A stretch of DNA of 63,605 nt, the filler included, from Candidatus Hydrogenedentota bacterium (GTDB lineage: Bacteria > JBFMHD01), in the NCBI GenBank assembly GCA_040752395.1. It is 7 parts of 7 records of this genome, joined end to end, with 100 filler letters (N's around TTAATTAATTAA, not from the genome) between each part and the next. Parts side by side here need not be neighbours in the genome. Positions count along the whole stretch, not along the records: positions 1 to 9,138 come from JBFMHD010000113.1; positions 9,239 to 18,322 come from JBFMHD010000114.1; positions 18,423 to 27,505 come from JBFMHD010000115.1; positions 27,606 to 36,670 come from JBFMHD010000116.1; positions 36,771 to 45,829 come from JBFMHD010000117.1; positions 45,930 to 54,807 come from JBFMHD010000118.1; positions 54,908 to 63,605 come from JBFMHD010000119.1. One strand, given 5' to 3'. The notes under the pieces are model-generated. The model was not told the DNA's origin and searched no databases. It saw nothing but the letters and a program-made list of their open reading frames with translations. Positions 1 through 61,883 of the stretch are shown in pieces (positions within the stretch are counted from its first letter, which is position 1; each line of letters opens with the position of its first letter). The position numbers and the translations under genes are program-made.

Positions 1-130
1 GCCGGCTGTAGTCCGTAGCCTGTAGCCTGTAGCCCGTCCTGACACCTCTCACTTCTTCCGTTATCTTGCTTCTTGCTTCTTGCTTCTACTTGATATTATT
101 AGAGTTACAGCGTTTTTCAGAGGAGCCATT
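1..130 (+). repeat. Composite intergenic repeat: GTAGCCT heptamer module plus TTCTTGC terminal module with SD, abutting the yajC start
   Basis: Near-identical to 27400-27505, 34667-34787 and the reverse complement of 45495-45620; ends tttttcagaggagccattATG. Confidence 0.9.
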
Positions 131-493
131 ATGTTTGAAAATTTAATTTATGCACAACAAGCTACACCAACCTCACAGTCCCAACCTGGTTGGGGTTCTG
201 TGTTACTTCCTTTTGTTCTAATATTTTTTGTTTTCTATTTTATTGTTATAAGACCGCAGAAGAAAGAACAGAAAAAACAGGATGATATTAGAAAGTCGCT
301 TCAAAAGGGAGACAAAGTAGTCACGATTGGCGGCATTATTGGAACCGTAACTATTGTTAAAGATGAAATCGTTGTTTTGAAAGTTGATGACAACACCAGG
401 ATAGAATTCAGAAAAAATGCCATCTCGTATAAAATACCAGAACCCGAGAAAAATAAAGAACAGATCAGTGCTAAACTAGGAGGCCCAAAATAA
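131..493 (+). CDS. yajC: Preprotein translocase subunit YajC
   Basis: TM segment then FYFIVIRPQKK...LQKGDKVVTIGGIIG; SD aggag before ATG131. The ORF-track extension to 80 is repeat-derived. Confidence 0.93.
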   Translation: MFENLIYAQQATPTSQSQPGWGSVLLPFVLIFFVFYFIVIRPQKKEQKKQDDIRKSLQKGDKVVTIGGIIGTVTIVKDEIVVLKVDDNTRIEFRKNAISYKIPEPEKNKEQISAKLGGPK

Positions 494-495
494 TC

Positions 496-768
496 GTGGT
501 TAAAACGAGACAATTTATTGTTAAGGGTCGAGTACAGGGAGTGGGGTTTAGATATTTTGTTTACAGGTATTGTGTTAATCTGGGATTAAGAGGCTATGTA
601 AAGAACCTGCGGGATGGAAATGTTGAGGTTGTTGCTCGTGGAGAAGAGGAAATATTAAATACTTTGTATGGAATACTAAAAGAAGGACCACATCTTGCAA
701 TAGTAAAAGATATCCATGTTAATGAACTAAATGGCGTTAGTTTTACAGATTTTGATATAAGGTATTAA
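496..768 (+). CDS. acyP: Acylphosphatase
   Basis: GRVQGVGFR and GYVKNLRDGNVE motifs. Confidence 0.95.
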   Translation: MVKTRQFIVKGRVQGVGFRYFVYRYCVNLGLRGYVKNLRDGNVEVVARGEEEILNTLYGILKEGPHLAIVKDIHVNELNGVSFTDFDIRY

Positions 769-845
769 GTAACTACTGAACTTTGAGCTTAAACCGTACG
801 GAATCCGTAGCACGTGGCATGGAGCCGGTAGTCTGCAATCTTTAT

Positions 846-1652
846 ATGAGATTTGGGTTTTGTATCCATTTTGGATTAAAAGATATTATAAAAGCTATTA
901 AGAAAGCTAAAAGATTAGGGTTTAATTATGTAGATATTACAATTGACCATCCTACAATGATGGAGGTTGATGTAAGAGAGATAAAGAGATTATTAAAAGA
1001 TTATGAAATGGAGATAGGAATACAAACGCCCTGGGAGACTATATTCTTAGCCTCAAGCTGGGAAGAATGCATTCGAGGGAATTTAGAGGTTATTGATAGA
1101 TGTTTTTCATTTGGTGAAAAAATTGGTTCTAAATACCTTAATGTTCATATAAGGGAAGATTTTGGAAATTTTCTTAATATATGGAACCTTACTGAAGAAA
1201 AAAAACAATTAATGACAGAAACCCTGAAAGAAATTGTTTCAAGATATTCAAATAAAATGATTGTAACAGCTGAGACACCAGGGAGTTCTATTTTCTCTGT
1301 ACCAGAAAATTTTAACAGTATAATAAGAGAAAGCGGTTGTGATGTCTGCATTGATACCGGTCATATCTGGCAGAGCACAAAAAATAATTATAAAAAATTT
1401 GTTCATTGGTTTAATATTCTTAATGATAAAATAAAAGTCATCCATCTCTCCGGTGGAAAAAAGACAAAAACAAGGGTTGCCCCACATTATGTACCTAACC
1501 TTAAGCAGCTTGAAATAATGACTGATTGCTTTAAAAGATGCAAAAATCTGAATTACATTATGTTTGAATTCTTTAGAGGTGTAAAACCTGAGAATTTACA
1601 CAAAAGAGAGATACAAATTTTAAAAAAATTAAGAGATGAGATAGATTACTGA
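846..1652 (+). CDS. Sugar phosphate isomerase/epimerase (xylose isomerase-like TIM barrel)
   Basis: MRFGF start; E(TP), DTGH, HLS and FE metal-ligand pattern. Confidence 0.7.
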   Translation: MRFGFCIHFGLKDIIKAIKKAKRLGFNYVDITIDHPTMMEVDVREIKRLLKDYEMEIGIQTPWETIFLASSWEECIRGNLEVIDRCFSFGEKIGSKYLNVHIREDFGNFLNIWNLTEEKKQLMTETLKEIVSRYSNKMIVTAETPGSSIFSVPENFNSIIRESGCDVCIDTGHIWQSTKNNYKKFVHWFNILNDKIKVIHLSGGKKTKTRVAPHYVPNLKQLEIMTDCFKRCKNLNYIMFEFFRGVKPENLHKREIQILKKLRDEIDY

Positions 1653-2576: not shown

Positions 2577-2647
2577 TTTATATTATAATAATCTATCAGT
2601 CAAAATTTTTCTTTACTTTTTTCTTATTAATAGAGATATTTACTAAA

Positions 2648-8919: not shown

Positions 8920-9138
8920 GTAGCTGCCTGCGCCGCGCTCTACCGCGGCAGCCAGGCAAAGGCACAAAGGCACAGAGGCACAAAGTATGAAAAGAGTCGT
9001 GAGTCGTGAGTCGTGAGTCAAAACAGGACTCGAGACTCAAGACTCAAGACTTTTTAGCAGGCTTTTGGCTTTTGGCTACAGCCGGCTGGAGTCTGAAGCC
9101 AGTAAGCCCGAAACCTGAATTTACAATGGAGCAAAGCG
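8920..9138 (+). repeat. Stacked repeat modules: GC-rich palindrome, GGCACA(A/G)A octamers, GAGTCGT/GACTCAA inverted heptamer arrays, GGCTTTT/AAGCC module
   Basis: Modules recur at 17286-17311, 27310-27400, 30386-30450 and 35664-35718; runs into the contig end. Confidence 0.85.
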
Positions 9139-9369: not shown

Positions 9370-11415
9370 TTATTCTCCACATTTCTTATTTCTTTCGTTA
9401 TCTTGCCTCTTGCTTCTTTCGTTATCTAAATACTGCCATTTAAAGCTGTCAATCTTTTTAAACACTATCTCTTCTCCATTTAAAAACGTCTTTGGAAAAA
9501 AACCTCTTTTACTGAACACTTCAATAAAATTTATATCCCTGGTACTTAAGATATTACAGCCATTTTCTGTAAAAGATACTAATTTTACAATATTATTACA
9601 ATAAAAATATTCAATATTATTAAAAAAAAGTTTACTCCCTGATAACAATAAAAAATCACCGGATTCTTTGATAAACCCGATTCTTGCATCGGTCTGAATC
9701 TTTCTGCCCTCAATCACTCCGACTTCATTGTTAAATAATGACCAGTCTTTGCCTTCTATAATACTTAATCCTCCTCTGTACTCTGTCTCAACTGTATTAT
9801 CGTATAAACTTAATAATATTATCTCTGTTGGATTTTTAATTGTTAATTTATCATCTAATCTTTGTAGCGCAGGATTTAAAAAATAACTCGACAACCCGCT
9901 AAAATAATTTGAATATTCAAATGATCCAACCTCATTGTTATAATAAATTAATAGTCCTTTCTCTTTAATAAAATAAATATAAAATAAATCATTAGATACA
10001 AATACTCTACAATTATCATCAGAATGAGAGAGATAAATCTTCTCTTGTGAATTTAAATCGGTCTTTATATATGTTATTCTGTCTTTCTCTACCAAACAGG
10101 AAAAATTTGAACTTAAAATCCAGTAGACATTATCTGTCACGGGAATTATCAATATGGAACTATCAAACAATATATCAAAGCAGGTTGTCTTAATAATATT
10201 CTCGGCATCTTGAAAAAAATACCTCGAATTAAGCAAAACATATCTATAATTATCCAAAAGCTCTTCTTTTTTAATAAAATTTAATATTCTTCTATCCCCG
10301 GTTATCTGATATAGAAGATATAAATTTAAAGAACTTATATTTACCTTTTTCGCTTCCATATTTAATACAACCTTACTATTGAATATATAAAAATATTTAA
10401 CTATATCATCTACATAATGTTTCAAAAACTCTTTGATATTATCATTTTGAATGAGTGACAGAGCAAATAAAGTATACCTAAGGCTATTATCATCATTTAT
10501 TAATCTATTAATAAAATTCTGCAATTCGTTATCTAAATTAATAATAATTTTTTTATTATATAAAAATGATTCGAGTAACTCGATGAGAAGACTTTTACTT
10601 GCTACTGTTACCTTATCGGTTCTGGGGATATCTAACAACAGGATAGAAAGAAGAAAATCTGTATATTCATCGACGGAGAGAACATTCTTTTTTTCTAAAA
10701 TGGAAAATACCTCTCCTGCTTTTTCTTTATAAATTTTATTACCAGTGTTCCTGTATTTTATACTTAAGTCTAAAAGAAAATTTATATATTCTCTGCTTTT
10801 ATTAATTTTTAAAATTTCAAATTCAGCGAGTCTGGGGTCATATTTTGCAAAACCTTCTCTTGTCTTATTCTCAAGTATATTAAAAAACATCTGAAAATTA
10901 TCAGGTCCAGGAATAGTAAAGGGCAGATAATATTCTTCCCTTTTATCAATAACTATCTCTTTGACCTCTTTTTTAGACCTTATATTCTCTCCTTCTAAAA
11001 TAAGAGACTTGATTGTTAATTTACAATCAGGATATAATTTACCAGAGAAAATAATATTATTATTTTCAAAAGAAAAAATATCTATCTTTGTTTCTTCGCC
11101 AGGCTTTATTTCTTTAGTCTCAGGTTTACTATTTACATCAAAATAATTTATACTTACAGGGAAACTGCCTTCAACCTTGAATACTATACTCCCTTTAATT
11201 AATAAGTTATATACTCTGATATTTTTTTTAATTGTAAAATATTCAGGTGTCTTTGATTGTGTATATAAAATCCAGGTATTTGACCCTTCTTTTAATACAT
11301 CTATATTTTTCCCGGTTAAAAACCTGTCCAGTACAAAAATATTGTCTAACGAATAATCGTTTGCAAAAACTAAAGAGCAAACAAATAAAAGAACCGGTAT
11401 TCTCAATAAAAGCAT
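9370..11415 (-). CDS. Large hypothetical secreted protein
   Basis: About 680-codon ORF with signal-peptide-like N-terminus, contiguous with ade; start uncertain. Confidence 0.7.
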   Translation of the reverse strand: MLLLRIPVLLFVCSLVFANDYSLDNIFVLDRFLTGKNIDVLKEGSNTWILYTQSKTPEYFTIKKNIRVYNLLIKGSIVFKVEGSFPVSINYFDVNSKPETKEIKPGEETKIDIFSFENNNIIFSGKLYPDCKLTIKSLILEGENIRSKKEVKEIVIDKREEYYLPFTIPGPDNFQMFFNILENKTREGFAKYDPRLAEFEILKINKSREYINFLLDLSIKYRNTGNKIYKEKAGEVFSILEKKNVLSVDEYTDFLLSILLLDIPRTDKVTVASKSLLIELLESFLYNKKIIINLDNELQNFINRLINDDNSLRYTLFALSLIQNDNIKEFLKHYVDDIVKYFYIFNSKVVLNMEAKKVNISSLNLYLLYQITGDRRILNFIKKEELLDNYRYVLLNSRYFFQDAENIIKTTCFDILFDSSILIIPVTDNVYWILSSNFSCLVEKDRITYIKTDLNSQEKIYLSHSDDNCRVFVSNDLFYIYFIKEKGLLIYYNNEVGSFEYSNYFSGLSSYFLNPALQRLDDKLTIKNPTEIILLSLYDNTVETEYRGGLSIIEGKDWSLFNNEVGVIEGRKIQTDARIGFIKESGDFLLLSGSKLFFNNIEYFYCNNIVKLVSFTENGCNILSTRDINFIEVFSKRGFFPKTFLNGEEIVFKKIDSFKWQYLDNERSKRQDNERNKKCGE

Positions 11416-13129: not shown

Positions 13130-13232
13130 AATACCACCAAACAATAAACCCCTATCCCACAGCGCCTTAACAATAATTTATTAATACAAAATGTCAAGTT
13201 ATAAAAGTATTGCCTCACTTCATAGATAAAAT

Positions 13233-13375
13233 TTAGAAGCAAGAAGCAAGAGGCAAGAGGCAAGATATTCGGTTATCGGCGTTCGGTGTTCGGTGGTCGG
13301 TTCACCGATAACCTAAAACCCAAAACCTATAACCGAAAATTTAACACCGAACTTAAGAACTCCACTAAATACCCC
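13233..13375. repeat. GCAAGA(A/G) heptamers followed by an inverted TTCGGT(G/T)/ACCGA heptamer hairpin
   Basis: tagaagcaagaagcaagaggcaagaggcaag then ttcggttatcggcgttcggtgttcgg...ccgataacc...ccgaa...caccgaac. Confidence 0.8.
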
Positions 13376-13443: not shown

Positions 13444-14700
13444 ATGAAAACAAAGTTATTTCTTTTGTTAATTAGCGCCTTCATTTTCCGATTAATACTT
13501 CTTTATTTCTTTTATTCGGATGATTATTTATGCGACGAACTTGAATATCATCTTTTGGCAAAAAATTTGGTTTCAGGTATCGGCTATAGTCTTGATAACA
13601 TATCGCTGACCACATATAGAAACCCGGGGTTCCCTTTCTTTCTCTCGGTTGTTTATAAACTCTTTTCTTCTAATATTCTAATAGTAAAAATCATCCAGTG
13701 CCTATTCAACTCATTTGCTTCAGTAATTGTTTTCTTAATTGCTAAAATTTTCTTTGATGAAAAGATTGCCCTGTTATCAGGTTATATAACCTCTTTTCAT
13801 CCGGTTATTGGTATCTATGCCACACAACTATACAGCGAGTCTTTTTATACAATAATATTTCTGGTTGGTATTTACTTTTTCATTAAGGCTTTTATAGACG
13901 TCTCTACTTACAAAATATATATAATTTTAGCCGGCATATTCTGTGGTCTATGTCTCCTCACCCGAACCTCAACTCTCTTTTATTTCTTACCACTGACCGC
14001 TGGCTACTTTATAATCTATAAAGATAAAAGAATACTAAAAATGGCTTTATTATTCTCTACAATTATTCTGCTTCTTATCCCCTGGACAATAAGAAACTAT
14101 AAGATTTCAGGTAAAATTCAGCCATTCGGTTCAGGTATCGGCGGCATAGTGTTCTTTATCGCAACTTACTTGCCCTGGAAAGGTGATAACCCGGGTTACG
14201 ATAAAGAACCTCTAAAAACCTATATGGAAAGATTTAAAAATGAAGAACTTGATAGTTTCCTCTACAAAGAAGGAATAAACAACATAAAAAAATGGCCTCT
14301 ACAATATCTCATTATGAGTATAAAAAGAATCAGACCATTATGGTTTACATCTCATTCTGCAATATTCGGGATCAACCTGCCTAATAAAACAATGCTTGAA
14401 AAAAAACTTTATCATTTAATCTTCATCAAAATCATACTCTTCGTATTCAATTGTTTGTTAATACTCTCAAATGTATTTTATTACTTCATTAACAAAGATA
14501 AAATAAAAGAACATATATTGTTTCTATTGCTTATTCTCGGTTTCAGCCTGCATATATTTCTTGCTGTCACAGCAAGATACACAGTACCCTATCTGCCATT
14601 ATCTATAATTCTATTTTCAAGTATGGTTTATCGGATAAAATATTATCTGCCTTGTTCCTGTCCAGTTACAGGTAACCCATCAGTTATGGGTAATATTTAG
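13444..14700 (+). CDS. GT39/ArnT-like membrane glycosyltransferase
   Basis: DE.EY..LA.NL, RNPGFP, SESFY, PWTIRNY motifs; multi-TM. Confidence 0.82.
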   Translation: MKTKLFLLLISAFIFRLILLYFFYSDDYLCDELEYHLLAKNLVSGIGYSLDNISLTTYRNPGFPFFLSVVYKLFSSNILIVKIIQCLFNSFASVIVFLIAKIFFDEKIALLSGYITSFHPVIGIYATQLYSESFYTIIFLVGIYFFIKAFIDVSTYKIYIILAGIFCGLCLLTRTSTLFYFLPLTAGYFIIYKDKRILKMALLFSTIILLLIPWTIRNYKISGKIQPFGSGIGGIVFFIATYLPWKGDNPGYDKEPLKTYMERFKNEELDSFLYKEGINNIKKWPLQYLIMSIKRIRPLWFTSHSAIFGINLPNKTMLEKKLYHLIFIKIILFVFNCLLILSNVFYYFINKDKIKEHILFLLLILGFSLHIFLAVTARYTVPYLPLSIILFSSMVYRIKYYLPCSCPVTGNPSVMGNI

Positions 14701-14789
14701 AAGCAAGATGCAAGATAACGAAAAACCGCTGTATGGGCAGACCTATGTGTCGGGCTGATGTAAGATGCAAAAGATAAGAGGCTGGATTA

Positions 14790-17261: not shown

Positions 17262-17345
17262 CCTGACTCCTAATTTTGAATTTAACTTTGTGCCTCTGTG
17301 CCTTTGTGCCTCTGAAAGTAAGAAGTGGGAAGTGAGAAGTATCAC
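17262..17345. repeat. CTGACTC / TTTGTGCC octamer / GAAGTGA modules
   Basis: Shares segments with 61795-61853 and 21394-21424; reverse complement of 8957-8986. Confidence 0.75.
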
Positions 17346-17642
17346 TAAGAATGTGGAATGCAGAAACAAGAAAAACCAGAACCGTCCATGTTTTCTGTGA
17401 CACCACCATCTCGCCTTGGTTATCCATCCAATGGCTGAACGGTTACAAAATTTTTAATTTTTCACCCTTGACAAATAAAAAAAATTAAATAAAAAATATT
17501 ATGGAACGAGATGATCCCGAAATTATGACAAATTTATGTCAGTGGGACGCTCGTTCCTTTGTGTTCTTGCGGCAAGCGTGTGTGGGGCGTAAATACTGAA
17601 CCATACTTTATCGTGAAAATCTGATTTTTAAATCATAAAAAA

Positions 17643-17935
17643 CTAAGAAGGGATTGCTTGAGTATAATTCCATGGCATCCATTGACAAGGATTTTTAATC
17701 AGGTCTTATGAATTCCTGATAAGCGCAGTAAGATAATGAAAGGGGTTGACATTTGAAAGATTGCAGGTATGAATGAGACTCATAAACAGGTCACCGATGT
17801 ATGCACCAGGATTTGTTTTGTAAAAAAGCGAGTTTTTTTCCGCTGAAGGATGACTTTCTTAAGAGCCTGTTCACAGATGTTGTTGTCAAGAGGTGCGCCA
17901 GCAACTCTCAAAAATAAAGTGAGATGATACCAATT
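17643..17935 (-). pseudogene. IS66-family transposase C-terminal remnant
   Basis: My translation: NWYHLTLFLRVAGAPLDNNICEQALKKVILQRK/NSLFYKTNPGAYIGDLFMSLIHTCNLSNVNPFHYLTAL...QWMPWNY; frameshift in the T-run at 17833-17839 and stop at 17706-17708. Confidence 0.88.
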
Positions 17936-18227
17936 TACACCACTATCACTTCAAGCACTATTGCCGAAAGAACACAGTCTAACGTATGATGTCTATGGTC
18001 TATTTGTCTAAATTGCAGATTTGGTAAATCTTATTAAAATCCGAGCTTTATTTAGGCCGCCACCTCACTCACGATTTATTCACGTTTATTTATAACTCTT
18101 CTAAAAATTTTAAAAACTGAAACTTTATGTTAACTATACTTTCGCACATTTTACCTTGAAAAAATAAAAAGCCGCCGTATAATATTGACTACAATTAAAT
18201 AATCAACACTATACTGAGGAAACTTCA

Positions 18228-18320
18228 ATGTTTACTACACAGCAAAGTATACAACCACCAAAGAATTTTGACAAGTATTTAAATCACTTTAAATCCGTCT
18301 TTACTAAACCATCAGTATAA
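18228..18320 (+). pseudogene. Possible transposase N-terminal fragment at contig end
   Basis: SD gagga then MFTTQQSIQPPKNFDKYLNHFKSVFTKPSV*; loosely resembles DDE transposase N-termini. Confidence 0.3.
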
Positions 18321-18422
18321 TTNNNNNNNNNNNNNNNNNNNNNNNNNNNNNNNNNNNNNNNNNNNNTTAATTAATTAANNNNNNNNNNNNNNNNNNNNNN
18401 NNNNNNNNNNNNNNNNNNNNNN

Positions 18423-18770
18423 GACAGGAGGAGAAGGCACAAAGGATATTAGGGGATGGGTCATAGGGGATGGGGTATATTAGGGGGCGGCGGTTAGGGG
18501 TTAGGGGTCCGGAGTCGAGAGTCGTGAGTCAGGATAAGACTGACGACTTAATGACCGGAGACTAGAGACTTTTTAGAGGAGTACTCATGAGCGCAGGTTG
18601 CGCTCTACACTATTGTGTTATTGGGTTCTTGGGTTATCGCGTTTTTGGGTTTTTGCGCTCTACACAACGTATGAAAAACCAGATGTTTGTTTATCTTGCT
18701 TCTTGCCTCTTGCCTCTTGCTTCTATTTGATATTATTAGAGTTACAGCGTTTTTCAGAGGAGGGGAACCA
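18423..18770 (+). repeat. Long stacked cassette: G-rich module, GAGTC/GACT hairpin, SD-ATG, octamer module, terminal TTCTTGC module with SD
   Basis: Segments match 21208-21380 (reverse complement), 27195-27297 and 50869-51020. Confidence 0.9.
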
Positions 18771-21207: not shown

Positions 21208-21424
21208 TAATAAAAACCCCCCTTCGAAAAACATTGTAACTCTAATGATATCAAGTAGAAGCAAGAAGCAAGATAAACAAACATCTGGTTTTTCATCCTT
21301 TGTGTAGAGCGCAAAAACGCAATAACCCAATAACCCAATAACCCAATAACCCAATAGTGTAGAGCGCAACCCGCGCTCATGTTGACTCCTCTGAGTGCCT
21401 TTGAAAGTAAGAAGTGAGAAGTAT
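21208..21424 (-). repeat. SD-ATG, (TTATTGGG)n octamer module and terminal module upstream of the ArfB-like gene
   Basis: Reverse complement matches 18587-18762 and 50869-51011. Confidence 0.9.
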
Positions 21425-22384: not shown

Positions 22385-22480
22385 CCTCAGTTATTCTACT
22401 TTAGTATTCCGTCAGTCTTCAGTGGGATTCCGTAATCTTGCTTCTAAAGTATAAGTTCTACTGCACCAACAACTGAGGCA
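22385..22480. repeat. CCTCAGTT...AACTGAGG palindromic repeat
   Basis: 22437-22479 is the reverse complement of 61741-61783 with one mismatch. Confidence 0.75.
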
Positions 22481-23040: not shown

Positions 23041-23346
23041 ATGAAAAAATATTTTATTAATCTTACTGAAAAGGACAGGATACGAGTTGAAATAACAGTT
23101 AGTAAAGGCAAAATATTAAATTTTGTTGTGCAATTAGAAACTTTTCTAATTAATAATTGGGAACCCGCAGTACGATATAATTATGCGCATGGCTTTCCAC
23201 ATAAAGATTTGATTTTTAGAAATGGTAAAAAAATTAAAGAAAATATTTCAGAAGAAAGTCTGTCAAAGATAGTTAATTGGGCAATTAATGAACTAAAAAT
23301 AAATTGGAAAAAATATTTAAGGAGGTGCGGTTTTGAAAAATTATAA
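23041..23346 (+). CDS. Small protein with RYxxAHGxxH motif (putative toxin-type)
   Basis: FVVQLE...VRYNYAHGFPHKD; coupled to a small downstream ORF. Confidence 0.65.
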   Translation: MKKYFINLTEKDRIRVEITVSKGKILNFVVQLETFLINNWEPAVRYNYAHGFPHKDLIFRNGKKIKENISEESLSKIVNWAINELKINWKKYLRRCGFEKL

Positions 23347-24496: not shown

Positions 24497-24515
24497 CAGT
24501 ACCTCCGTAAGCCAT

Positions 24516-24548
24516 CAGAACGTGTGAAAAAATTGTAGTGAGCACCTT
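24516..24548 (+). mobile_element. Solo left end of a MITE-like element between nuoC and nuoD
   Basis: cagaacgtgtgaaaaaattgtagtgagcacctt resembles 57154-57186. Confidence 0.6.
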
Positions 24549-26725: not shown

Positions 26726-27198
26726 AATTTTTATCTTATTTTAAAGAAATTTATTCAAGTATCTACTCACTAATCGTTGGAATGCTTATAACAAATAAAT
26801 ATTTATTTAAACCCATCTTCACAGTTCAATATCCGTTCGAAACACTGATATTCAAAGACCGGTTCCGTGGCATTGTTTTTAATGATATTTCTGACTGTAT
26901 AGTCTGTGGCATGTGTGCCAGAATCTGTCCACCTGGTTGCATAAACTTAAAATCAGAAAAGCGTAGTCCCGAAGAAACAATACCCCTTACATCAGATGGC
27001 AGAAAAAAAATGCTGAAACTTACTACTTATATAATAGATATATCTAAGTGTATGTTCTGTGGCTTATGCACAGAGGTCTGTCCCACTAAATGCCTTAAGA
27101 TGACAAAAAAGATAAAAGGGCTGATAAGTAATGACTACTATGATAGAAAATTGCTTATCTATGATTACATCGCACTAAATAGTAAGGAGTTAACATGA
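26722..27198 (+). CDS. nuoI: NADH-quinone oxidoreductase subunit I
   Basis: TVQYP and two CxxCxxCxxxCP motifs. Confidence 0.92.
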   Translation: MKFLSYFKEIYSSIYSLIVGMLITNKYLFKPIFTVQYPFETLIFKDRFRGIVFNDISDCIVCGMCARICPPGCINLKSEKRSPEETIPLTSDGRKKMLKLTTYIIDISKCMFCGLCTEVCPTKCLKMTKKIKGLISNDYYDRKLLIYDYIALNSKELT

Positions 27199-27505
27199 GC
27201 GCGGGTTGCGTTCTACACTATTGGGTTTTTGGGTTTTTGGGTTCTTGGGTTATTGGGTTATTGCGTTTTTGCGCTCTACACAAAGCATGAAAAACTAAAG
27301 ATGATATAAAAAGAGTCGTGAGTCACAAGTCGCAAGTCGTGAGTCAAAACAAGACTCAAGACTCAAGACTTTTCAGCAGGCTCCGGGCTTTTGTCTCCAG
27401 CCGGCTGTAGTCCGTAGCCTGTAGCCTGTAGCCCGTCCTGACACCTCTCACTTCTTCCGTTATCTTGCTTCTTGCTTCTACTTGATATCATTAGAGTTAC
27501 AATGT
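27195..27505 (+). repeat. Four-module stacked cassette beginning at an SD+ATG that overlaps the nuoI stop
   Basis: Octamer, GAGTC/GACTC hairpin, GTAGCCT and TTCTTGC modules in series; truncated by contig end. Confidence 0.92.
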
Positions 27506-29055: not shown

Positions 29056-29128
29056 GGGCCCATAGCTCAGTTGGTAGAGCGGCCGGCTCATAACCGGTTG
29101 GTCCGGGGTTCGAGGCCTCGTGGGCCCA
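29056..29128 (+). tRNA. tRNA with CAT anticodon, probably tRNA-Ile2 (lysidine)
   Basis: GGGCCCA/TGGGCCC acceptor, GCCGG-CTCATAA-CCGGT arm; lacks initiator features (no C1 mismatch, no three G-C pairs). Confidence 0.9.
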
Positions 29129-29242
29129 CTTGATGTATAGAAGCAAGAAGCAAGATGCAAGAAGTAGATGATATGTTGGCTTCGGAGTTGATATGTTTAA
29201 AAGATATCTTAGTAAATGGAGCGGGTTACAATGAGAGGGAGG

Positions 29243-34622: not shown

Positions 34623-34631
34623 AATTAGATG

Positions 34632-34787
34632 AAAGGAGTTGATATGTTGGCTTCAGGCTCCAGGTGGCTGTAGTCCGTAGCCTGTAGCCTGTAGCCCGTC
34701 CTGACACCTCTCATTTCTTCCGTTATCTTGCTTCTTGCTTCTATTTGATATTATTAGAGTTACAACGTTTTTCAGAGGAGGTTAGCT
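34632..34787 (+). repeat. Cassette between nfeD and slipin: SD-ATG, modules, new SD-ATG
   Basis: gaaaggagttgatATG(34644)...tttttcagaggaggttagctATG(34788). Confidence 0.92.
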
Positions 34788-35569: not shown

Positions 35570-35718
35570 CCCCCTTAGATACTGGTAGCTAATTATGATT
35601 AGAGGTAATTTTGACTTATCTAAGGGGGGAGATTGGGAATTGAAAATTACCCGCGACTTTTCAACTGGAGCCTGAAGCCAGTAGCCCGAAGCCTGAATTT
35701 ACAATGGAGCGAAGTGAC
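35570..35718. repeat. CCCCTTAGAT...ATCTAAGGGG inverted repeat plus AAGCC heptamer module between convergent genes
   Basis: Arms at 35571-35580 and 35618-35627; 35665-35712 nearly identical to 9086-9134; a related ccccgttaga at 46044-46053. Confidence 0.7.
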
Positions 35719-42567: not shown

Positions 42568-44523
42568 CTACCATGAACCTAAGGATTGAAGTCTTGATAT
42601 GGCGGTCTGGTTCTGTGGGTCGAGCTCGACAACTTTTCTGTATAAAATAAAACTCTCTTTTAACATATTATTTACTCTGTAAATCTCAGCAAGGTTCAAT
42701 AAACCATCAACATATCCGGGGTTTAACATAATATTAAATTGATATTGTGTGATGGCGGTCTGGAGATCACCAAGGAAATACAGGGCATTCGCATAATTGT
42801 TTCTATAATCAGGGCTTAAGGGGTCGAGTTTCATAGCTTTCTCGAATAATCGCATTGCTTTTTCTTTTTCACCTGCTTCATAATACATAAACGCAAGTTT
42901 AGTTAGCCCGGCTGGATATAATGGATAAATCTTTAGATATTTTTGTATAAACGAAGCCATCTTTTCTCGGTTACCCAATTTTTCATAACATAACCCTATT
43001 CTGTATGGCAGCATTACGAAATACGGTGCTAAATTTTTTAGATTGTAATAGATATTTAAGGAAGAGTTATAATTGTTTCTGTCATATTCATTAGTTCCAT
43101 AAAAATATAACGCTTCGATGTAATTTTTATCCAGTCTCAAGGTTGTCTCATAAAGTTTTTTTGCTGTATCGTAATCATTATTTCTTGAATGTCTTACAGC
43201 TTCTCCAAGATAAAAATCAGATAAAAAAAGATTACTCACTGCAAATATTATAACGAAGATTGAAAGAATAACACTTATTATCTTTCTTGCTTCTTGCTTC
43301 TTGCTTCTTGCTTCTTGCTCAATTCCTGGATTAATAAAAATAGATAGCGCCATCCCTAAAATTAACCAGAAGAATATATTATTCTGAATATATCTAAAAT
43401 TAACACAGGTAGCATTGTGACTCATATATGCTATAAAGCCAAAGATAAATCCCTTCCTTATAACCTCGACTTCTTTATTTTTACAGTGAAACTTAAAAAT
43501 CCTGTAAATTATAAGTAAAATAATAGATACAAATAAGGATAAACCGATAACACCCTCCTCAACCAGAACCTCAAGATATTCATTGTGGGTATGAACCGTT
43601 TCGTTATTAATATTATGTTCAAATTTTAATACCTCAATCGGCCGAAAACCCGGGTAAATTATTCTAAAAGTGCCTCTACCAGTACCTTTTAAAAAGTTCT
43701 CTTGGATCATATCAAGGGTTGTTCTATAGGTATCTATTCTGAATGCGCTGGTACCGACATAACCAAACGATTTAACAAACTTTTCTCCCATCGGACTTGT
43801 AAAAAAATAGATGAAAAATAATGATACGAAGATAAAAATATATATTTTATAAGATGGTTTAAGCCATAGTGCGCGAGTTGTGTACAATATAAATATTATA
43901 AAAAACAGAATAGATACTATAAATCCTAAAAACGCACCCTTTGATTCAATCTCAAATAGGGAGTAAAGCAGAATAATACCTGTAAATGTAAATATCCCTA
44001 TCTTTATTATTCTACGATTATTGATACAATACAAAAGATACATAAGTAGAACAGGAAAGATAAATATAACAAACGCACCGAGAAAATTCTTATTTCCAAA
44101 AGACGAGAATAAAATAGCACCCCCAAAATCCATAAATCCAAATCGTATAAAGCCCATAATGATGCATAGCAATCCAAAAAGTATTATAAATACACCAAAA
44201 TTTTTCACTATCTCTTTATTTTGGAAATAATTTGCAGTATATATAGAAAAAACTATCATTCCTATATCATAGACTATTTCTCTTATTACGCTGATTTTAA
44301 AATCCGAGATAAAAATCTGGATTATTCTATAGATTAACAATAAAAATACTAAATATATTAACGGGTCTTTAAAATTGATTACAGGTTTATGGAATATAAT
44401 TATTATACTGATTAAAATAAAAAATAGAGCATATTTTATCTGTATCTCAAAATAATTTGAATAAGATACAGATAAACCCACGAGAAGAACTAATAACTGA
44501 ATTAAATCAATATATTTTCTCAC
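42568..44523 (-). CDS. O-antigen ligase (Wzy_C)-like membrane protein with C-terminal TPRs
   Basis: SSFGNKNFLG, SKGAFLG, G.GRGTF, HTHNEYL and TPR helices. Confidence 0.88.
   Translation of the reverse strand: MRKYIDLIQLLVLLVGLSVSYSNYFEIQIKYALFFILISIIIIFHKPVINFKDPLIYLVFLLLIYRIIQIFISDFKISVIREIVYDIGMIVFSIYTANYFQNKEIVKNFGVFIILFGLLCIIMGFIRFGFMDFGGAILFSSFGNKNFLGAFVIFIFPVLLMYLLYCINNRRIIKIGIFTFTGIILLYSLFEIESKGAFLGFIVSILFFIIFILYTTRALWLKPSYKIYIFIFVSLFFIYFFTSPMGEKFVKSFGYVGTSAFRIDTYRTTLDMIQENFLKGTGRGTFRIIYPGFRPIEVLKFEHNINNETVHTHNEYLEVLVEEGVIGLSLFVSIILLIIYRIFKFHCKNKEVEVIRKGFIFGFIAYMSHNATCVNFRYIQNNIFFWLILGMALSIFINPGIEQEARSKKQEARKIISVILSIFVIIFAVSNLFLSDFYLGEAVRHSRNNDYDTAKKLYETTLRLDKNYIEALYFYGTNEYDRNNYNSSLNIYYNLKNLAPYFVMLPYRIGLCYEKLGNREKMASFIQKYLKIYPLYPAGLTKLAFMYYEAGEKEKAMRLFEKAMKLDPLSPDYRNNYANALYFLGDLQTAITQYQFNIMLNPGYVDGLLNLAEIYRVNNMLKESFILYRKVVELDPQNQTAISRLQSLGSW
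43284..43318. repeat. (TTCTTGC)x5 perfect heptamer array inside a CDS
   Basis: Read directly from the sequence; encodes QEARSKKQEARK. Confidence 0.95.
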
Positions 44524-45494: not shown

Positions 45495-45742
45495 CTTAAT
45501 ATCTCCTCTGAAAAACATTGTAACTCTAATGATATCAAGTAGAAGCAAGAAGCAAGATAACGGAAGAAGTGAGAGGTATCAGGAGAGGCTACAGGCTACA
45601 GGCTACGGACTACAGCCGGCTGGAGCCAAAAGCCCGGAGCCTGAAGCCAACATCCTTTAAAAAATTCAAAATACAAAATGCAGAAATCTGGGGTCAGCAA
45701 CCAGAATTTAGAACGCAAGAACGCAATAGTGTAGAGCGCAAA
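45495..45742 (-). repeat. Stacked cassette upstream of the CBM48 gene
   Basis: Reverse complement matches 1-125, 27379-27505 and 34644-34780. Confidence 0.9.
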
Positions 45743-45929: not shown

Positions 45930-46053
45930 AATAGGGTAGAGCGCAACCCACGCTCATGAGTACTCCTTCGAAAAAGTTCGGAGTTCGGAGTTCGGAGCTA
46001 TTATTACGAACTCCTAACTCCTATCTTTTTCATACGTTGTGTACCCCGTTAGA
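45930..46053 (-). repeat. GGAGTT(C/A)/GAACTCC heptamer hairpin module, SD-ATG, then octamer module start
   Basis: Reverse complement: ATGAAAAAG ataggagttaggagttcg...ccgaactccgaactccgaa CTTTTTCgaaggagtactcATGagcg. Confidence 0.85.
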
Positions 46054-46155
46054 GAACGATATTACTTTTTATTATTACAGGAGTCAAGTAATTATTGACG
46101 GATGGCTACAAATCTTAATATAATAATTAAAATTTTTTCGGGGGGTAAAAAAAAG

Positions 46156-50852: not shown

Positions 50853-51020
50853 TTTCAGAGAAGTTGTCATGAGCACTTTTGCGCTCTACATTATTGGGTT
50901 CTTGGGTTCTTGCGTTTTTGCGCTCTACACAAAGGATGAAAAACCAGATGTTTGTTTATCTTGCTTCTTGCCTCTATTTGATATTATTATAGTTACGAAG
51001 TTTTTCGAAGGATGGTTCTA
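50853..51020 (+). repeat. Cassette between tyrA and cmk
   Basis: ATG50869, octamer module, terminal module, tttttcgaagga before cmk. Confidence 0.9.
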
Positions 51021-59633: not shown

Positions 59634-59637
59634 ATTT

Positions 59638-60630
59638 ATGAAAGCTATTGCTGTTGTTTCAGGTGGGCTTGATAGTATGCTAAGCGCAAAACTTATAATG
59701 AATCAAGGGATAGAAGTTACAGGTGTCCATCTCTTAATACCTTTTTCCAAATATGCAAACGAAAATATTTATAGAGAAAAAGTAAAAGAGCTCGGTAAGA
59801 ATCTTGGTATAGAGATAATAGCTTTAAGCACCGGTATAGATTATCTTGAGCTCATTAAGAAGCCACGCTATGGCTATGGCAAAAATATCAATCCCTGTAT
59901 CGACTGTCATATTTATATGTTTAAAAGAGCTAAAAAATTAATGGAAGAAATTGATGCAAAATTTATTATAACAGGTGAGGTGCTCGGACAGAGACCTATG
60001 AGTCAGAACAAAGCTACATTAGAATTAATAGAAAAAAGGAGTGAGTTACAGGGCTTGATTGTAAGACCACTCTCTGCAAAAGCTTTAAAAGAAACGATAC
60101 CTGAAAAAGAGGGCCGGATAGATAGAGAAAAACTTCTTGGGATTGTTGGTAAATCACGAAAAATACAATTAGAAAAAGCAAGAGAACTTGGATTACAGGG
60201 TTATGGTACACCTGCTGGTGGCTGTCTCCTCACTGACCCTGGTTTTGCAAGAAGAGTACAAGACCTTATAAAATCAGATATGCTGACCTTAGATACTATT
60301 GATTTAATTAAAAATGGGAGATATTTTGCTTTGTCTGATAAGTTTAAATTGATTGTCGCTAGAGATTATAATGAGAATATCAATTTAAAATCGCTTGCTA
60401 AAGAGCGATATTTAGTTATTGAATCTATCTCAAAAGGGCCTGATGCGATAGGGATTGGCGATATCAATGATGAGAGGATTAAACAATCAGTAGAGATTGT
60501 GGCGTACTATTGTAAAAAAGAGAAAGAGCATGCCAGGATAAAGTATGGGATTTATCCAGAGACAGGGAAGTATGAAATGTCTATTAACAGAAATGAGATA
60601 AAAATAGATTTACAAAAAGGGGCGGTATGA
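59638..60630 (+). CDS. ThiI/MnmA-like PP-loop tRNA thiouridylase-family protein
   Basis: SGGLDS, NPCIDC, TGEVLGQRPMSQ, PAGGCLLT. Confidence 0.85.
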   Translation: MKAIAVVSGGLDSMLSAKLIMNQGIEVTGVHLLIPFSKYANENIYREKVKELGKNLGIEIIALSTGIDYLELIKKPRYGYGKNINPCIDCHIYMFKRAKKLMEEIDAKFIITGEVLGQRPMSQNKATLELIEKRSELQGLIVRPLSAKALKETIPEKEGRIDREKLLGIVGKSRKIQLEKARELGLQGYGTPAGGCLLTDPGFARRVQDLIKSDMLTLDTIDLIKNGRYFALSDKFKLIVARDYNENINLKSLAKERYLVIESISKGPDAIGIGDINDERIKQSVEIVAYYCKKEKEHARIKYGIYPETGKYEMSINRNEIKIDLQKGAV

Positions 60631-61703
60631 GAGAAAAAGTAGCTGTTGCTATGTCAGGCGGCGTTGATTCTTCAACTACTGCTTATCTATTAAAAGAAGA
60701 AGGTTATGATGTTCTTGGCATATTTTTGAAATTTTTTAGAACCAACGATGATAAAGAAAGAATAAGCTGCTGTGGGATCCAGGGTAGAGAGGATGCAAGA
60801 AGCGTAGCAAAACATATTGGTATCCCGTTTTATGTATTAAACTATGAACAGAGTTTCCAAAAAGAGGTAATAGAAAACTTCTGTCTGGAATACAGAAATG
60901 CCAGGACACCTAATCCGTGCGTGTTATGTAATAAAAAAGTGAAGCTTGGTAGATTATTACAGGAGATGCAGATAGCTGAGATACAATATGTAGCAACAGG
61001 TCACTATGCAAATATTGAGTATGATAAAAATATAAAACGATACCTCCTTAAAAAAGGTAAAGATGTAGCTAAAGACCAGTCATATTTTTTATATGCATTA
61101 AATCAGGTTCAACTCTCGCGACTGAAGTTTCCACTCGGGAATTATACAAAAGATGAGGTAAGAAAAATAGCACAAAAAGCCGGCCTCTTTGTGTGCGATA
61201 AACCGGCCAATCAGGAAATCTGTTTTATCCCAGATAATGATTATAAAAGATTTTTATTAAAAAGACACCCCGAGTTAAATAGTCCAGGATATATACTCTT
61301 CAAAGATGGTAAAATATTAGGTGAACATAAAGGAATAGCATTTTACACGATTGGTCAGAGAGAGGGTTTAGGTATATCTCATAAAAAGCCGTTATATGTT
61401 ATTAAAATTGATAAAAACAATAACACGATTATTGTTGGGGAAGAAGAGGATCTTTATAGTTCTGAGCTTACTGCTTGTGAATTAAATCTCATAGCAGTTG
61501 AAAAGATTATAGAACCATTAAAAGTAAAGGCAAAGATCAGGTATAATCACAAAGAAGCAGAGGCTATAGCAGAAAAAATATCAGATGATAGAATAAAGAT
61601 AAAATTCAAAGAGCCGCAGCGAGCGATAACACGCGGTCAGTCTGTTGTTATGTATCAAGACGATACAGTCATCGCCGGTGGCATAATCGAGGCAGAGGGT
61701 TAA
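60627..61703 (+). CDS. mnmA: tRNA 2-thiouridylase MnmA
   Basis: AMSGGVDS, PNPCVLCN, ATGHYA, KDQSYFL, TIGQR.GLG. Confidence 0.96.
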   Translation: MREKVAVAMSGGVDSSTTAYLLKEEGYDVLGIFLKFFRTNDDKERISCCGIQGREDARSVAKHIGIPFYVLNYEQSFQKEVIENFCLEYRNARTPNPCVLCNKKVKLGRLLQEMQIAEIQYVATGHYANIEYDKNIKRYLLKKGKDVAKDQSYFLYALNQVQLSRLKFPLGNYTKDEVRKIAQKAGLFVCDKPANQEICFIPDNDYKRFLLKRHPELNSPGYILFKDGKILGEHKGIAFYTIGQREGLGISHKKPLYVIKIDKNNNTIIVGEEEDLYSSELTACELNLIAVEKIIEPLKVKAKIRYNHKEAEAIAEKISDDRIKIKFKEPQRAITRGQSVVMYQDDTVIAGGIIEAEG

Positions 61704-61740
61704 GAAGAGATTATATAGGATATCTATAGATTTAAGTAAA

Positions 61741-61883
61741 GCCTCAGTTATTGGTGCAGTAGAACTTATACTTTAGAAGCAAGAAGCAAGAAGTCTGACT
61801 CCTGACTCCTAATTTTGAATTTTTCAATCTTTCAATCTTTCAATCTTTGTGCCTGATGGTAGTATGGTTTCCACCGAAGACTG
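61741..61883. repeat. Stacked modules: CCTCAGTT arm, GCAAGAA, CTGACTC, (TTTCAATC)x3
   Basis: Shared with 22412-22479 (reverse complement) and 17262-17292. Confidence 0.8.

Follow-up and report, generated by a model that had tools for sequence, protein, structure and literature searches.

The DNA examined here raises the question of what the heptamer and octamer arrays in front of many of its genes are, and why they lie so close to start codons. The window, a stretch of 63,605 nucleotides, consists of seven whole contigs (C17-C23) separated by N spacers and is part of an assembly of 349 contigs (2.84 Mb, 34.8% GC); the evidence base is this single MAG together with one stray contig from another assembly. 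Tandem Repeats Finder listed the units TTCTTGC, GTAGCC., GAGTCGT/GACTCAA, AGTTCGG, TTCGGTG, octamers around TTGGGTT., CAAAGGCA and TTTCAATC where the original prediction had placed its tandem units, AGTTCGG being its GGAGTTC seen on the opposite strand, and the loci are indeed spread over seven unlinked contigs. The nine loci that had been singled out as clear cases all show the grammar ascribed to them, namely a Shine-Dalgarno (SD)-like hexamer, about 5 nt, an ATG, one or more modules, a 12-mer or near variant of it, a spacer and the ATG of a gene or of the next module, and contig ends truncate three of the nine (1-130, 27195-27505 and 45930-46032). A k=16 repeat scan added islands at 9390-9427, 14694-14751, 17266-17387, 18133-18279, 22412-22469 and 24515-24548 in the window and counted 1559 islands in the assembly, where their 153,264 bp set the repeat share at a minimum of 5.4%; 290 of 698 contig ends (42%) fall inside such islands. 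The exact 12-mer TTTTCAGAGGAG is present in 329 copies in this genome, the only representative of its phylum in the GTDB set searched, as against 0 to 6 copies per genome in 300 other bacterial genomes, and its backwards-read control is found 0 times in this genome; its abundance far exceeds chance. Exact module 18- to 30-mers have 19 to 215 genomic copies each (for example 215, 215, 167 and 156), and a 98.5% identical copy was found on a contig of a different assembly. The arrays belong to a single, abundant family of intergenic repeats, which are composite and strand-specific and about 60 to 500 nt long. This family is real, and its mechanism is what we infer below.

The canonical order of modules is F, E or K (optional), B, a short linker, hairpin C, hairpin D, A, a tail and the 3'-terminal 12-mer S, TTTTC(A/G)(G/A)AGGAG. 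Module B is an octamer array flanked by two copies of GCGCTCTACAC, the arms of the hairpins are GAGTC.. and GACTC.. in C, GGCT... and GTAGCC. in D, and GGAGTT and AACTCC in E, and module A is an unstructured pyrimidine-rich stretch of TTCTTGC units. The lengths of three copies assembled in full are 280-315 nt. Each of the hairpins C, D and E exceeded shuffled sequences in stability: z lay between -3.3 and -4.1 for four of the five folds, with equal stability in 0 of 200 shuffles, and the fold of a second D copy gave z -2.05, a stability reached by 5 of 200 shuffles. No structure is seen in the SD-bearing A tail (z +0.7 against shuffles), and the whole element, when folded, was no stabler than shuffles (z 0.17). 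A second type of tail, CTGAATTTACAATGGAGC..., contains no SD.

Several loci in the window display this architecture directly upstream of genes. At 1-130 (+), the contig start leaves the 3' part of a composite (D right arm, linker x, TTCTTGC array A, tail and S at 114-125), whose SD lies 5 nt upstream of the yajC ATG at 131. A long composite at 18423-18770 (+) comprises F, G-rich arrays, a C-like hairpin ending TTTTTAGAGGAG, B with its octamer array between two GCGCTCTACAC, linker, A, tail and S (18751-18762), and the ATG of a 78-aa ORF follows at 18771, 8 nt past S. On the minus strand, K, S, B, linker, A, tail and a variant S, TTTTCGAAGGGG, (21208-21424) directly precede the ATG at 21207 of an RF-1-domain gene, and a B remnant, a linker module, D, x, A, tail and S at 45503-45514 (45495-45742) lead, after 8 nt, to a CBM48-domain gene with its ATG at 45494. 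As predicted, elements are also found inside conserved operons. In nuo, AGGAG, TTAAC, ATG, B, linker, C, D, x, A and tail form a near-full composite after nuoI (27185-27505, +), the ATGA of which overlaps the nuoI stop and which is cut by the contig end. Between NfeD and SPFH, AGGAG, a B-linker remnant, D, x, A, tail and S at 34769-34780 (34629-34787, +) end 7 nt before the SPFH ATG at 34788. Between an aromatic amino-acid gene (prephenate dehydrogenase) and cmk (ATG at 51021), an S-like 5' end, TTTCAGAGAAG, is followed by B, linker, A, tail and a variant S, TTTTCGAAGGATGG (50860-51020, +), and a solo hairpin C ending TTTTCATAGGGG (30386-30459, +) separates NIF3 from a zinc-ribbon gene, 5 nt before the ATG at 30460. 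Hairpin E ending TTTTTCGAAGGAG, TACTC, ATG and the start of B occupy 45930-46057 (-) and run off the contig start.

Other copies of modules lie elsewhere. Downstream of surE, F (an GGCACAAA array), hairpin C, a D variant and the SD-less second tail reach the contig end (8957-9138, +), and a D-like right arm with the same type of tail is found at 35665-35714 (+). F/K-type modules lie downstream of a glycosyltransferase gene with no S beside a called gene (17266-17387, -). A divergent gap contains a reversed A-type array (AGAAGCA) with TTCGGTG and AACCTAA arrays and no S motif (13231-13359, -), and a mixed island downstream of mnmA, to which no strand was assigned, combines a reversed A array, CTGACTC units, an TTTCAATC array and TTTGTGCC, again with no S motif (61741-61974). 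An A-type TTCTTGC array (29136-29185, -) abuts the 3' end of a tRNA gene (29056-29128), and five perfect TTCTTGC units (43284-43319, +) lie within a 651-aa ORF (42568-44523, -). Genome-wide, TTCTTGC arrays without tail and SD were found upstream of gene starts (42), facing gene ends (23) and within ORFs (14).

The original prediction had explained such loci by independent heptamer or octamer cassettes, shuffled among sites, each of which inserts at a start codon, brings a replacement SD and so creates a new target, leading to stacks. Directly in front of every module there is indeed an ATG, with an SD-like hexamer about 5 nt upstream of it; the TTTTC..AGGAG ends of hairpins C and E contain a T-run that pairs with the A-run following the ATG; and in 73 of 410 cases an internal S is followed by a further unit. 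However, any module may be absent from a copy and yet the order is kept: genome-wide, 1258 transitions between modules were ascending and 24 descending, compared with 669 and 425 in shuffles, and the module after S was B in 62 of 77 cases, whereas random re-targeting would scramble the order and duplicate modules. Identical 42-mers spanning specific deletion junctions recur in 36, 24 and 14 copies at unrelated loci, together with linked variants; the B-to-A junction occurs 32 times, and 41 of the 65 starts of module D share one and the same B-to-D junction (…GATGATATG before TTGGCTTC). Because copies beginning with D retain remnants of the B linker, they are truncated composites. The near-invariant order and the recurrent junctions therefore identify the composite and its deletion derivatives, and not lone modules, as the amplified units, and copy-and-paste spread is implied by deletion derivatives that recur identically 14 to 36 times across unrelated loci. 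With spacers and ATGs beside real genes that differ in length and sequence, and with two junctions at tRNA genes where there is no start codon, the cassette model seems quite improbable for the present-day copies, and it may describe the first origin of the composite. It is extremely improbable that the arrays arose in place by slippage, in the manner of STRR-like tandem repeats, or through faulty assembly, with no dispersed family at all. Unit numbers do vary by slippage, the TTCTTGC arrays without tail and SD occur in mixed contexts, and 42% of contig ends lie in repeats, but stretches of linker, loop and tail, 18-30 nt long and not tandem, have 150-215 exact copies, many copies are internal to contigs with unique flanks on both sides, and the 98.5% identical copy stands on another assembly's contig; together with the recurrent deletion junctions, these copies contradict such an origin.

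All 410 genomic occurrences of TTTTC(A/G)(G/A)AGGAG were then classified by what comes next, a gene being scored when a start codon within 30 nt opened an ORF of at least 60 aa. A start codon with ORF followed in 272 cases, another module in 73, a contig end in 20 and something else in 45, and in the reverse-complement control only 6 of 410 were followed by a start codon and ORF; these counts are independent of the crude ORF caller used for gene calls. The spacing between S and start codon peaks at 4-12 nt, and islands in co-directional gaps are co-oriented with the genes in 226 cases, anti-oriented in 45 and of undetermined orientation in 102. It is evident that the 3' AGGAG of most copies is the SD site of a co-oriented downstream gene, 4-12 nt from its start, as had been predicted for a non-autonomous family whose 3' ends are enriched near start codons. 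S serves as SD in 250 of 583 callable AGGAG SDs, a proportion that may be inflated by a choice of starts that rewards AGGAG, and thus in 250 of 2606 genes or about one gene in ten. The 45 S motifs away from any recognisable gene included 20 loci at which no Rfam match was found.

These positions could also reflect function and not targeting, the family being a shared 5' leader or intercistronic cassette retained because it benefits expression; its hairpins would contribute to mRNA stability or processing, its arrays would bind an RNA-binding protein, and its unstructured pyrimidine-rich leader with a strong SD would enhance translation, much as in the regulon proposed for the TAACTGA repeats of Beggiatoaceae. 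Such a role, which is compatible with a mobile origin, is possible but unlikely. A common leader and SD in about one gene in ten, the placement of the SD in an unstructured stretch right 3' of stable hairpins and the almost invariant hairpin loops (209 of 210 and 212 of 220) are in its favor, and heptamer repeats just upstream of starts have been proposed as sites of a post-transcriptional regulator (PMC4679880). However, an SD is useless at tRNA junctions, there is no correlation between the heptamer counts of the two hairpin arms, which thus change independently (Spearman -0.03 and 0.06), the whole element is no stabler than shuffles, and the genes downstream of elements within the window have mixed functions. 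Also, function leaves unexplained how identical copies arrived at hundreds of loci.

The boundaries of the copies bear on what is targeted. The sequence 3' of the terminal AGGAG is not conserved, and the spacer and ATG found there are variable and belong to the host. On the left, where the 5' ends of copies are heterogeneous, unique sequence is followed by AGGAG, a 5-nt subfamily marker (TACTC, TCAAC, TCGTC or TACCC) and ATGAGCGCGG. Of 93 copies beginning with B, 70 have AGGAG as their 5' pentamer, their left boundary falling directly after it, and the markers are found in similar numbers after a host AGGAG and after an element AGGAG (21:17, 20:12, 7:5 and 6:4). Among unstacked copies with a co-directional upstream ORF, 18 of 19 have the ORF stop 4-60 nt before the hexamer, which is the position expected of a native SD. 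Four of the 43 tRNA genes begin with GGAG, and in two of these, Ser-tga and Tyr-gta, the GGAG of S forms tRNA bases 1-4; a K module abuts a third, and no S motif was present at the 5' end of the remaining 39 tRNA genes (Fisher exact p ~0.007, hand-calculated from what are two cases of fusion). The fusion of S only to tRNA genes starting with GGAG points to the sequence and not the start codon as the target, which looks like the pentamer AGGAG, or GGAG. The predicted placement before genes holds, and the variable spacers and ATGs, the left boundary and the two tRNAs point to AGGAG/GGAG as the probable target. No target duplication was detected; in 32 copies the pentamer at one end or the other is a variant, and in none of them do the two ends share it, so that both AGGAGs could simply be fixed parts of the element.

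The best explanation, and one we consider somewhat favored, is that the family is non-autonomous mobile DNA that inserts next to AGGAG and amplifies as composites. Such DNA would integrate in one orientation beside a sense-strand AGGAG (minimally GGAG). As the element's own 3' end carries the same pentamer, an intact AGGAG would still precede whatever lay downstream of the target, be it spacer and start codon or the remainder of a tRNA, and insertion would be harmless. Because AGGAG outside coding sequence is mainly found at SD sites, copies would accumulate there, essential operons included. The amplifying units would be composite copies and their deletion derivatives, with unit numbers altered afterwards by replication slippage. 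This logic can be likened to the single-strand, tetra- or pentanucleotide-targeted, duplication-free insertion of the IS200/IS605 type. In agreement with the prediction that no mobilising enzyme is visible, neither a Y1 transposase, TnpB or reverse transcriptase nor a multi-copy element longer than 500 nt was found in the assembly, which is 93.8% complete and of a kind from which repeats and IS elements are often missing. No empty or polymorphic site was seen, the GTDB set searched containing no other genome of the phylum; the nearest metagenome NuoD loci show no more than 62% identity and contain none of the motifs, and one allelic pair (C97/C119) differs by a 563-nt deletion with no clean excision.

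Repeats of the REP/BIME/REPIN group, mobilised by RAYT, and palindromic elements derived from IS200/IS605 are strand-specific mosaics of imperfect palindromes that cause no target duplication, adjoin a fixed short sequence and are mobilised in trans. The family described here shares the palindrome mosaic, the strand specificity, the lack of target duplication and the fixed adjoining sequence. However, REP-type repeats mostly follow genes whereas this family precedes them, its hairpins are internal and built from 7-nt units instead of subterminal, and no Y1 (RAYT or IS200) gene was found. STRR of filamentous cyanobacteria are likewise tandem heptamers in intergenic DNA, but belong to another host lineage, and here the units form part of a conserved composite whose linkers are unique; the resemblance invoked in the prediction is thus formal only, the host being the sole member of its phylum in the GTDB set searched. 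Forward TAACTGA heptamer direct repeats of marine Beggiatoaceae also lie a few nt from start codons, those of ribosomal protein genes included, and a regulon was proposed, but these single-unit arrays overlap the RBS and replace the canonical SD (PMC4679880), whereas several different units form hairpins here and a canonical SD is supplied. Neisseria REP2 and Borrelia IR-A/IR-B are dispersed immediately upstream of ORFs, have internal stem-loops without terminal inverted repeats and carry an RBS before the ORF; REP2, of 120-150 bp and about 26 copies, has its own promoter and ATG (PMC3184786), whereas the present family has hundreds of copies, uses the host ATG, contains no promoter signal above shuffles and has a body of heptamer arrays. 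MIRUs are short repeats, co-oriented with genes, tolerated in operons and presumably mobile, whose entry at gene starts would hardly alter expression; according to a 2025 review, they 'insert themselves at start codons' and thereby couple an internal ORF to the gene (PMC12548453), so that the idea of harmless entry of repeats at gene starts is already published. In MIRUs, expression is kept by overlapping stop and start codons (-4 coupling), whereas here an SD-ended element, a collinear mosaic of heptamer hairpins, is followed by a variable host spacer. Compared by description, the family is akin to these known RBS-bearing or operon-tolerated repeats, MIRU, Neisseria REP2 and BIME.

The seven contigs of the window (C17-C23) are complete and joined by N spacers, and the metagenome-derived assembly to which they belong comprises 349 contigs with 2.84 Mb, a GC content of 34.8% and a completeness of 93.8%; no 16S gene was found in this assembly. 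In a set of one genome per GTDB species it is the sole representative of its phylum, and even the best of 309 metagenome relatives of its NuoD shares no more than 62% identity with it. Tandem Repeats Finder recovered the heptamer and octamer arrays where they had been predicted in the window, and reading of the sequence confirmed, for the nine loci regarded as the clearest, that repeat modules are followed by the 12-mer TTTTC(A/G)(G/A)AGGAG (S), which contains the Shine-Dalgarno (SD) pentamer AGGAG, or by a near variant of it. As a description of the repeats, the original prediction was accurate. Genes located 3' of these elements are ordinary housekeeping genes, several of them within conserved operons, and the contexts encountered are yajC, nuoI followed by an element, NIF3 with a zinc-ribbon gene, NfeD with SPFH, and prephenate dehydrogenase with cmk. 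In the window, a gene for a DUF7718 protein (23041-23346) lies between nuoA and nuoB; the run nuoA-B-C-D-H-I is standard apart from this gene, which is flanked by gaps of unusual length for that operon.

There are 329 exact copies of the 12-mer TTTTCAGAGGAG in the genome and none of its backwards-read control, while 300 other bacterial genomes, which like the first 40 compared are related to this one at the domain level only, contain 0-6 copies each. The degenerate form TTTTC[AG][AG]AGGAG was found 410 times, and individual non-tandem pieces of 18-30 nt are present in 150-215 exact copies. A repeat scan with k=16, employed in place of a k=12 scan that was too permissive, flagged 1559 islands built from words present at least 5 times; together they cover 153,264 bp or 5.4% of the assembly, and the 22,135 island bases that fall inside predicted coding regions belong mostly to spurious ORFs crossing repeats. 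As 290 of the 698 contig ends lie within an island, the true share of the genome must be higher than 5.4%, and these repeats are the cause of the fragmentation of the assembly into 349 pieces. The feature is real, striking and far in excess of chance.

Chaining of the consensus contexts around each module marker yielded the module order F/E/K, B, C, D, x, A, tail, S. At the 5' side, three modules are optional: F consists of GGCACAAA units, E is a hairpin with GGAGTT and AACTCC arms, and K begins with CTTCTCACTTCT. Module B contains octamers of the TTATTGGG type flanked by two copies of GCGCTCTACAC and continues into a linker running from ATGAAAAAC to GATGATATG. Hairpin C is formed by GAGTCGT units, the loop GAGTCAAAACA and GACTCAA units, and hairpin D by GGCT-type units, the centre GCCGGCT and GTAGCC-type units. 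Linker x (CCTGACACCTCTCACTTCTTCCG), the TTCTTGC units of A, a tail (CTTGATATTATTAGAGTTACA and a G after two variable positions) and S complete the composite, of which three fully assembled copies of 280-315 nt were found. Each hairpin arm carries 1-6 heptamer units, and the loops are near-invariant (209/210 in C, 212/220 in D). Co-variation of the lengths of the two arms was considered and rejected, given Spearman coefficients of -0.03 for C (n=210) and 0.06 for D (n=220).

According to the original prediction, independent cassettes insert one upon another and so build up stacks. In the 444 oriented islands that contain two or more modules, 1258 transitions between adjacent modules follow the canonical order and 24 run against it, whereas shuffling of modules within islands gave 669 versus 425, and where an S motif is internal, the module after it is B in 62 of 77 cases. 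Any of the modules may be absent from a copy, yet the deletion junctions are fixed: the junction from D to tail is represented by 36 identical 42-mers, that from B to A by 32 copies, and that from B to D, in which GATGATATG stands before TTGGCTTC, is identical in 41 of 65 D-module starts. Two A-tail haplotypes with linked variants are represented by 24 and 14 copies. Recurrence of identical deletion junctions indicates that both the composites and certain of their deletion derivatives spread by copying to numerous unrelated sites in the genome. As judged from these sequences, the pattern is that of mobile-element subfamilies and not of module-by-module assembly at each site, and both the fixed order and the recurrent junctions speak against cassette stacking.

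A second type of tail, starting with CTGAATTTACAATGGAGCGAAG and lacking an SD, follows D-like arms at 9100-9138 and 35690-35714 of the window and is also present upstream of a tRNA-Gly(ccc) gene on contig C288, which suggests a sister family with another 3' end. The last 0.9 kb or so of contig C18 (window 17400-18322) contain no ORF of at least 80 aa, and the island located there (18133-18279) matched none of the module markers used.

Following the 410 S motifs into the downstream sequence, the start codon (ATG, GTG or TTG) of an ORF of 60 aa or longer was found within 30 nt in 272 cases; it is mostly ATG, and the most frequent spacings are 4-12 nt, which is typical of SDs. The same test was positive for 6 of 410 on the reverse complement and for 1234 of 4379 AGGAG pentamers of any origin. 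As to the other S motifs, 73 are followed by another module, 20 lie less than 200 nt from a contig end and 45 were classed as other, so that 317 motifs are open to judgement and 272 of these precede an ORF start. Some of the 45 precede short ORFs, one of which may be the start of ribosomal protein L34, and near base 131 of contig C101 a long open frame lies downstream of an S motif and has no ATG, GTG or TTG in the first 30 nt, so that it may be a gene with a non-canonical start codon. AGGAG is present in the SD window of 583 of 2606 genes and in 250 of these 583 it is the end of an S motif, as counted with gene calls from a crude ORF search (2683 genes, 84.5% coding) in which the choice of starts rewards AGGAG; the counts from S to start codon (272/410, and 6/410 in reverse) are independent of these calls.

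In co-directional intergenic gaps, 226 islands share the direction of the genes and 45 run against it, with no orientation assignable to 102, and convergent gaps make up 38 of the 475 island-bearing gaps versus 285 of all 2334 gaps. Where TTCTTGC arrays are accompanied by tail and S, they point towards the start of a gene in 74 cases and towards a gene end in 6; for arrays lacking S, whose position is less constrained, the numbers are 42 and 23, with 14 inside ORFs. In the window, five perfect TTCTTGC units (43284-43319) lie inside a 651-aa ORF (42568-44523, minus strand) whose frame is open throughout, and they fall roughly between a match to an IctB-like membrane domain and TPR repeats.

At the 3' side of the element, conservation ends immediately after AGGAG, and since spacer and ATG vary among copies, both belong to the host. 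At the 5' side, the 70 B-module starts inspected, out of 96, read as unique sequence or another module, AGGAG, a 5-nt marker and ATGAGCGCGG. Among the 93 B-first copies with a downstream S, 70 have AGGAG as their 5' pentamer. The markers TACTC, TCAAC, TCGTC and TACCC occur in similar proportions after element-derived and host-side AGGAG, and this identifies them as subfamily marks of the element. An SD-like hexamer precedes 108 B starts, of which 53 are stacked on a preceding module and 55 stand free. For 19 of the 55 unstacked starts the end of a co-directional ORF of 80 aa or more lies between -60 and +45 of the hexamer, with the stop codon 4-60 nt before it in 18 cases and 6 nt after its first base in one; the hexamer thus occupies the position expected of a native SD. 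AGGAG is found at both ends of 61 of the 93 B-first copies, and as the remaining 32 have a variant pentamer at one end or the other and none shares its variant between ends, nothing in these 93 copies points to duplication of a variable target.

The most telling observation on the target comes from tRNA genes, 4 of 43 of which start with GGAG. In tRNA-Ser(tga) on contig C28 and tRNA-Tyr(gta) in a tRNA cluster on contig C175, the GGAG of an S motif constitutes bases 1-4 of the tRNA, the element tail running directly into the gene, and these bases pair with the 3' acceptor strand. In a third of the four, tRNA-Ser(cga), a K module abuts the GGAG. The 39 tRNA genes with other beginnings all lack a 5' S motif (2/4 versus 0/39; numbers are small, and the Fisher p of about 0.007 was calculated by hand). 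A tRNA gene has no use for an SD in front of it, and the junction thus follows the sequence GGAG and not translation. The proposal that start codons are the target is therefore not borne out, as host spacer and ATG vary and GGAG junctions occur even at tRNA genes. Random insertion followed by selection would be an alternative to targeting. It would place the 3' end 4-12 nt before a start codon and in the right orientation in perhaps only a few percent of cases, and other bacteria usually tolerate insertions at further intergenic positions, so that targeting is more economical than selection alone. The left arm of hairpin E contains an AGGAG of its own, and no clear insertion into it was found when it was used as an internal empty site.

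When folded alone, hairpins C, D and E gave z-scores of -3.3 to -4.1 in four of five folds, with 0 of 200 dinucleotide shuffles as stable, and a second copy of D gave -2.05, with 5 of 200 as stable. Both C and D, as read, present stop codons in every frame. The T-run of S pairs with an A-run 3' of the ATG of the module, and the SD-bearing stretch x-A-tail-S is unstructured (z +0.72). A structured RNA spanning the whole element was rejected, as a near-full element had a z of 0.17 and 58 of 100 shuffles folded at least as well. At the gathering score of Rfam, the window yielded two tRNAs only, and 20 further S-adjacent loci gave no match. In two element regions that were scanned, no terminator-like site was detected and the promoter-like scan returned one 9-of-12 match per region, within the range of shuffles, so that hairpin plus T-run was discarded as a terminator or promoter signal.

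No copy of the element was detected in the 40 relatives at domain level or in plasmid, phage and viral-contig collections, and one 23-nt element pattern had 0 matches in JGI metagenome contigs. Of the 309 confirmed NuoD relatives, 80 metagenome loci, all at most 62% identical, were inspected and none carried element motifs; relatives at this distance are too remote for the comparison of empty sites, and a comparison of nuo gaps added little. Five element motifs gave only unrelated, primer-like matches in the collection of papers searched. A pattern scan of contigs from all species returned, among the matches listed, eight single chance matches and one real copy. The latter (L005, contig G041:C128) stands at the start of a contig of 2.2 kb that was binned with another assembly, of 2.9 Mb; it has the structure B-D-tail-S and shares 98.5% identity with copies in the studied genome. 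The genes following it are absent from the studied genome and its own assembly has no second copy; the contig probably is a stray one from a close relative of the studied organism and did not serve for orthologous comparison. Within the assembly, a search for filled and empty alleles produced mostly overlaps of contig ends, and two deletion variants were rejected as excisions of the element because they are not clean. Bases 1-210 of contig C97 and 4139-4914 of contig C119 represent the same locus and differ by a 563-nt segment, one end of the deletion lying inside an element tail at 2-3 nt of microhomology; the pair shows strain heterogeneity within the bin and not element excision.

That no mobilising enzyme is visible, as had been noted for the window, also holds for the whole genome with respect to Y1 transposase (PF01797; 0 matches, the control matching 6 of 14 reference genomes), TnpB (0 matches) and reverse transcriptase (0 matches). 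Three tyrosine recombinases were found, two with longest open frames of 297 and 291 aa and the third with an internal TGA. The only IS-like genes are an IS256-like fragment and an IS110-family gene, neither of which has element ends, and no inter-contig repeat longer than 500 nt exists in the assembly. The IS110-family transposase gene (368-aa open frame) is located on contig C263 of 1742 nt, in which no sequence of the element is present, and is flanked by mutually inverted heptamer-like arrays, of CCTGCC type on one side and GGCAGG type on the other, as if it lay in the loop of a further hairpin module. Absence of an enzyme from a 94%-complete MAG broken at repeats is weak evidence.

The best reading, to which we incline with some reserve, is that of a composite, non-autonomous element which would integrate beside AGGAG and regenerate it. 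A harmless, SD-supplying repeat mobilised in trans, as originally proposed, is supported, and the stacking of cassettes and start-codon targeting are not. An additional regulatory role of the shared leader is possible. A wider proposal is offered tentatively and, taken as a whole, is rather doubtful: previously undescribed mobile DNA may home to the SD pentamer and regenerate it, may thereby have colonised about one gene start in ten and the 5' ends of GGAG-tRNAs without harm, may be moved by an enzyme outside the Y1, TnpB and reverse transcriptase groups, and the hairpins and leader that its copies share may later have been recruited as a module of translational control throughout the genome. 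If integration beside AGGAG is correct, the element would be a clear natural case of a genomic parasite rendered harmless by targeting and then rebuilding the commonest functional short motif outside coding sequence, the saturation of essential operons with repeats would be explained, and much translation initiation (250 of 583 AGGAG sites) would take place on sequence delivered by mobile DNA. The SD sequence would then be a new target logic beside the start-codon logic proposed for MIRUs. The conserved 12-mer with its tail is a handy marker for binning or scaffolding of the lineage, and an unstructured leader with a strong SD behind insulating hairpins is a type of part that operon engineers design deliberately.

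BIME/REP mosaics and palindromic elements derived from IS200/IS605 are mosaic, strand-specific and free of target duplications, a logic that the element would share. Like REP, BIME and REPIN sequences it has imperfect palindromes and mosaic clusters, although its mosaic is collinear and the Y1 (HUH) RAYT gene that accompanies such repeats was not found in this genome. IS200/IS605-type elements insert beside a fixed tetra- or pentanucleotide, in one orientation and without duplication; the 5' AGGAG (70/93), the junctions at GGAG-tRNAs (2/4 versus 0/39) and the orientation bias observed here may correspond to this. Both TnpA (Y1) and TnpB are unmatched in the genome. Unlike MITEs, the element has no terminal inverted repeats, its consensus ends being direct AGGAG repeats on inspection (5' AGGAG-TCAAC-ATGAGCGCGG, 3' GTTTTTCAGAGGAG), and no related autonomous IS with the same ends was found in the 93.8%-complete assembly. 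Heptamer arrays are shared with cyanobacterial STRR, but the host is no filamentous cyanobacterium and the arrays here are part of a conserved composite. The co-oriented, intercistronic position in operons is shared with MIRUs, in which an internal ORF stop overlaps the start (-4 coupling); here there is a variable spacer of 4-12 nt instead. Neisseria REP2 and Borrelia IR repeats are reported to carry promoter, RBS and ATG and to lie just upstream of ORFs (PMC3184786), and TAACTGA heptamer arrays within a few nt of start codons are reported for Beggiatoaceae (PMC4679880). An RBS directly upstream of ORFs is common to REP2 and the element (272 of 410 S motifs), whereas the promoter and ATG of REP2 have no equivalent here, promoter matches being at the level of shuffles and ATG and spacer being unconserved. 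The idea is not new in kind: repeats that bear an RBS, and repeats tolerated in operons, are already known. The element differs from them in that no known mobilising gene was found in its genome, in its body of several different heptamer hairpins in fixed order, in the sequence-level indication that its junction would track GGAG even at tRNA genes, in its mode of tolerance, with a regenerated SD and a host spacer in place of stop-start overlap or a carried ATG, and in its scale, as roughly a tenth of the genes are concerned and 250 of 583 AGGAG SDs.
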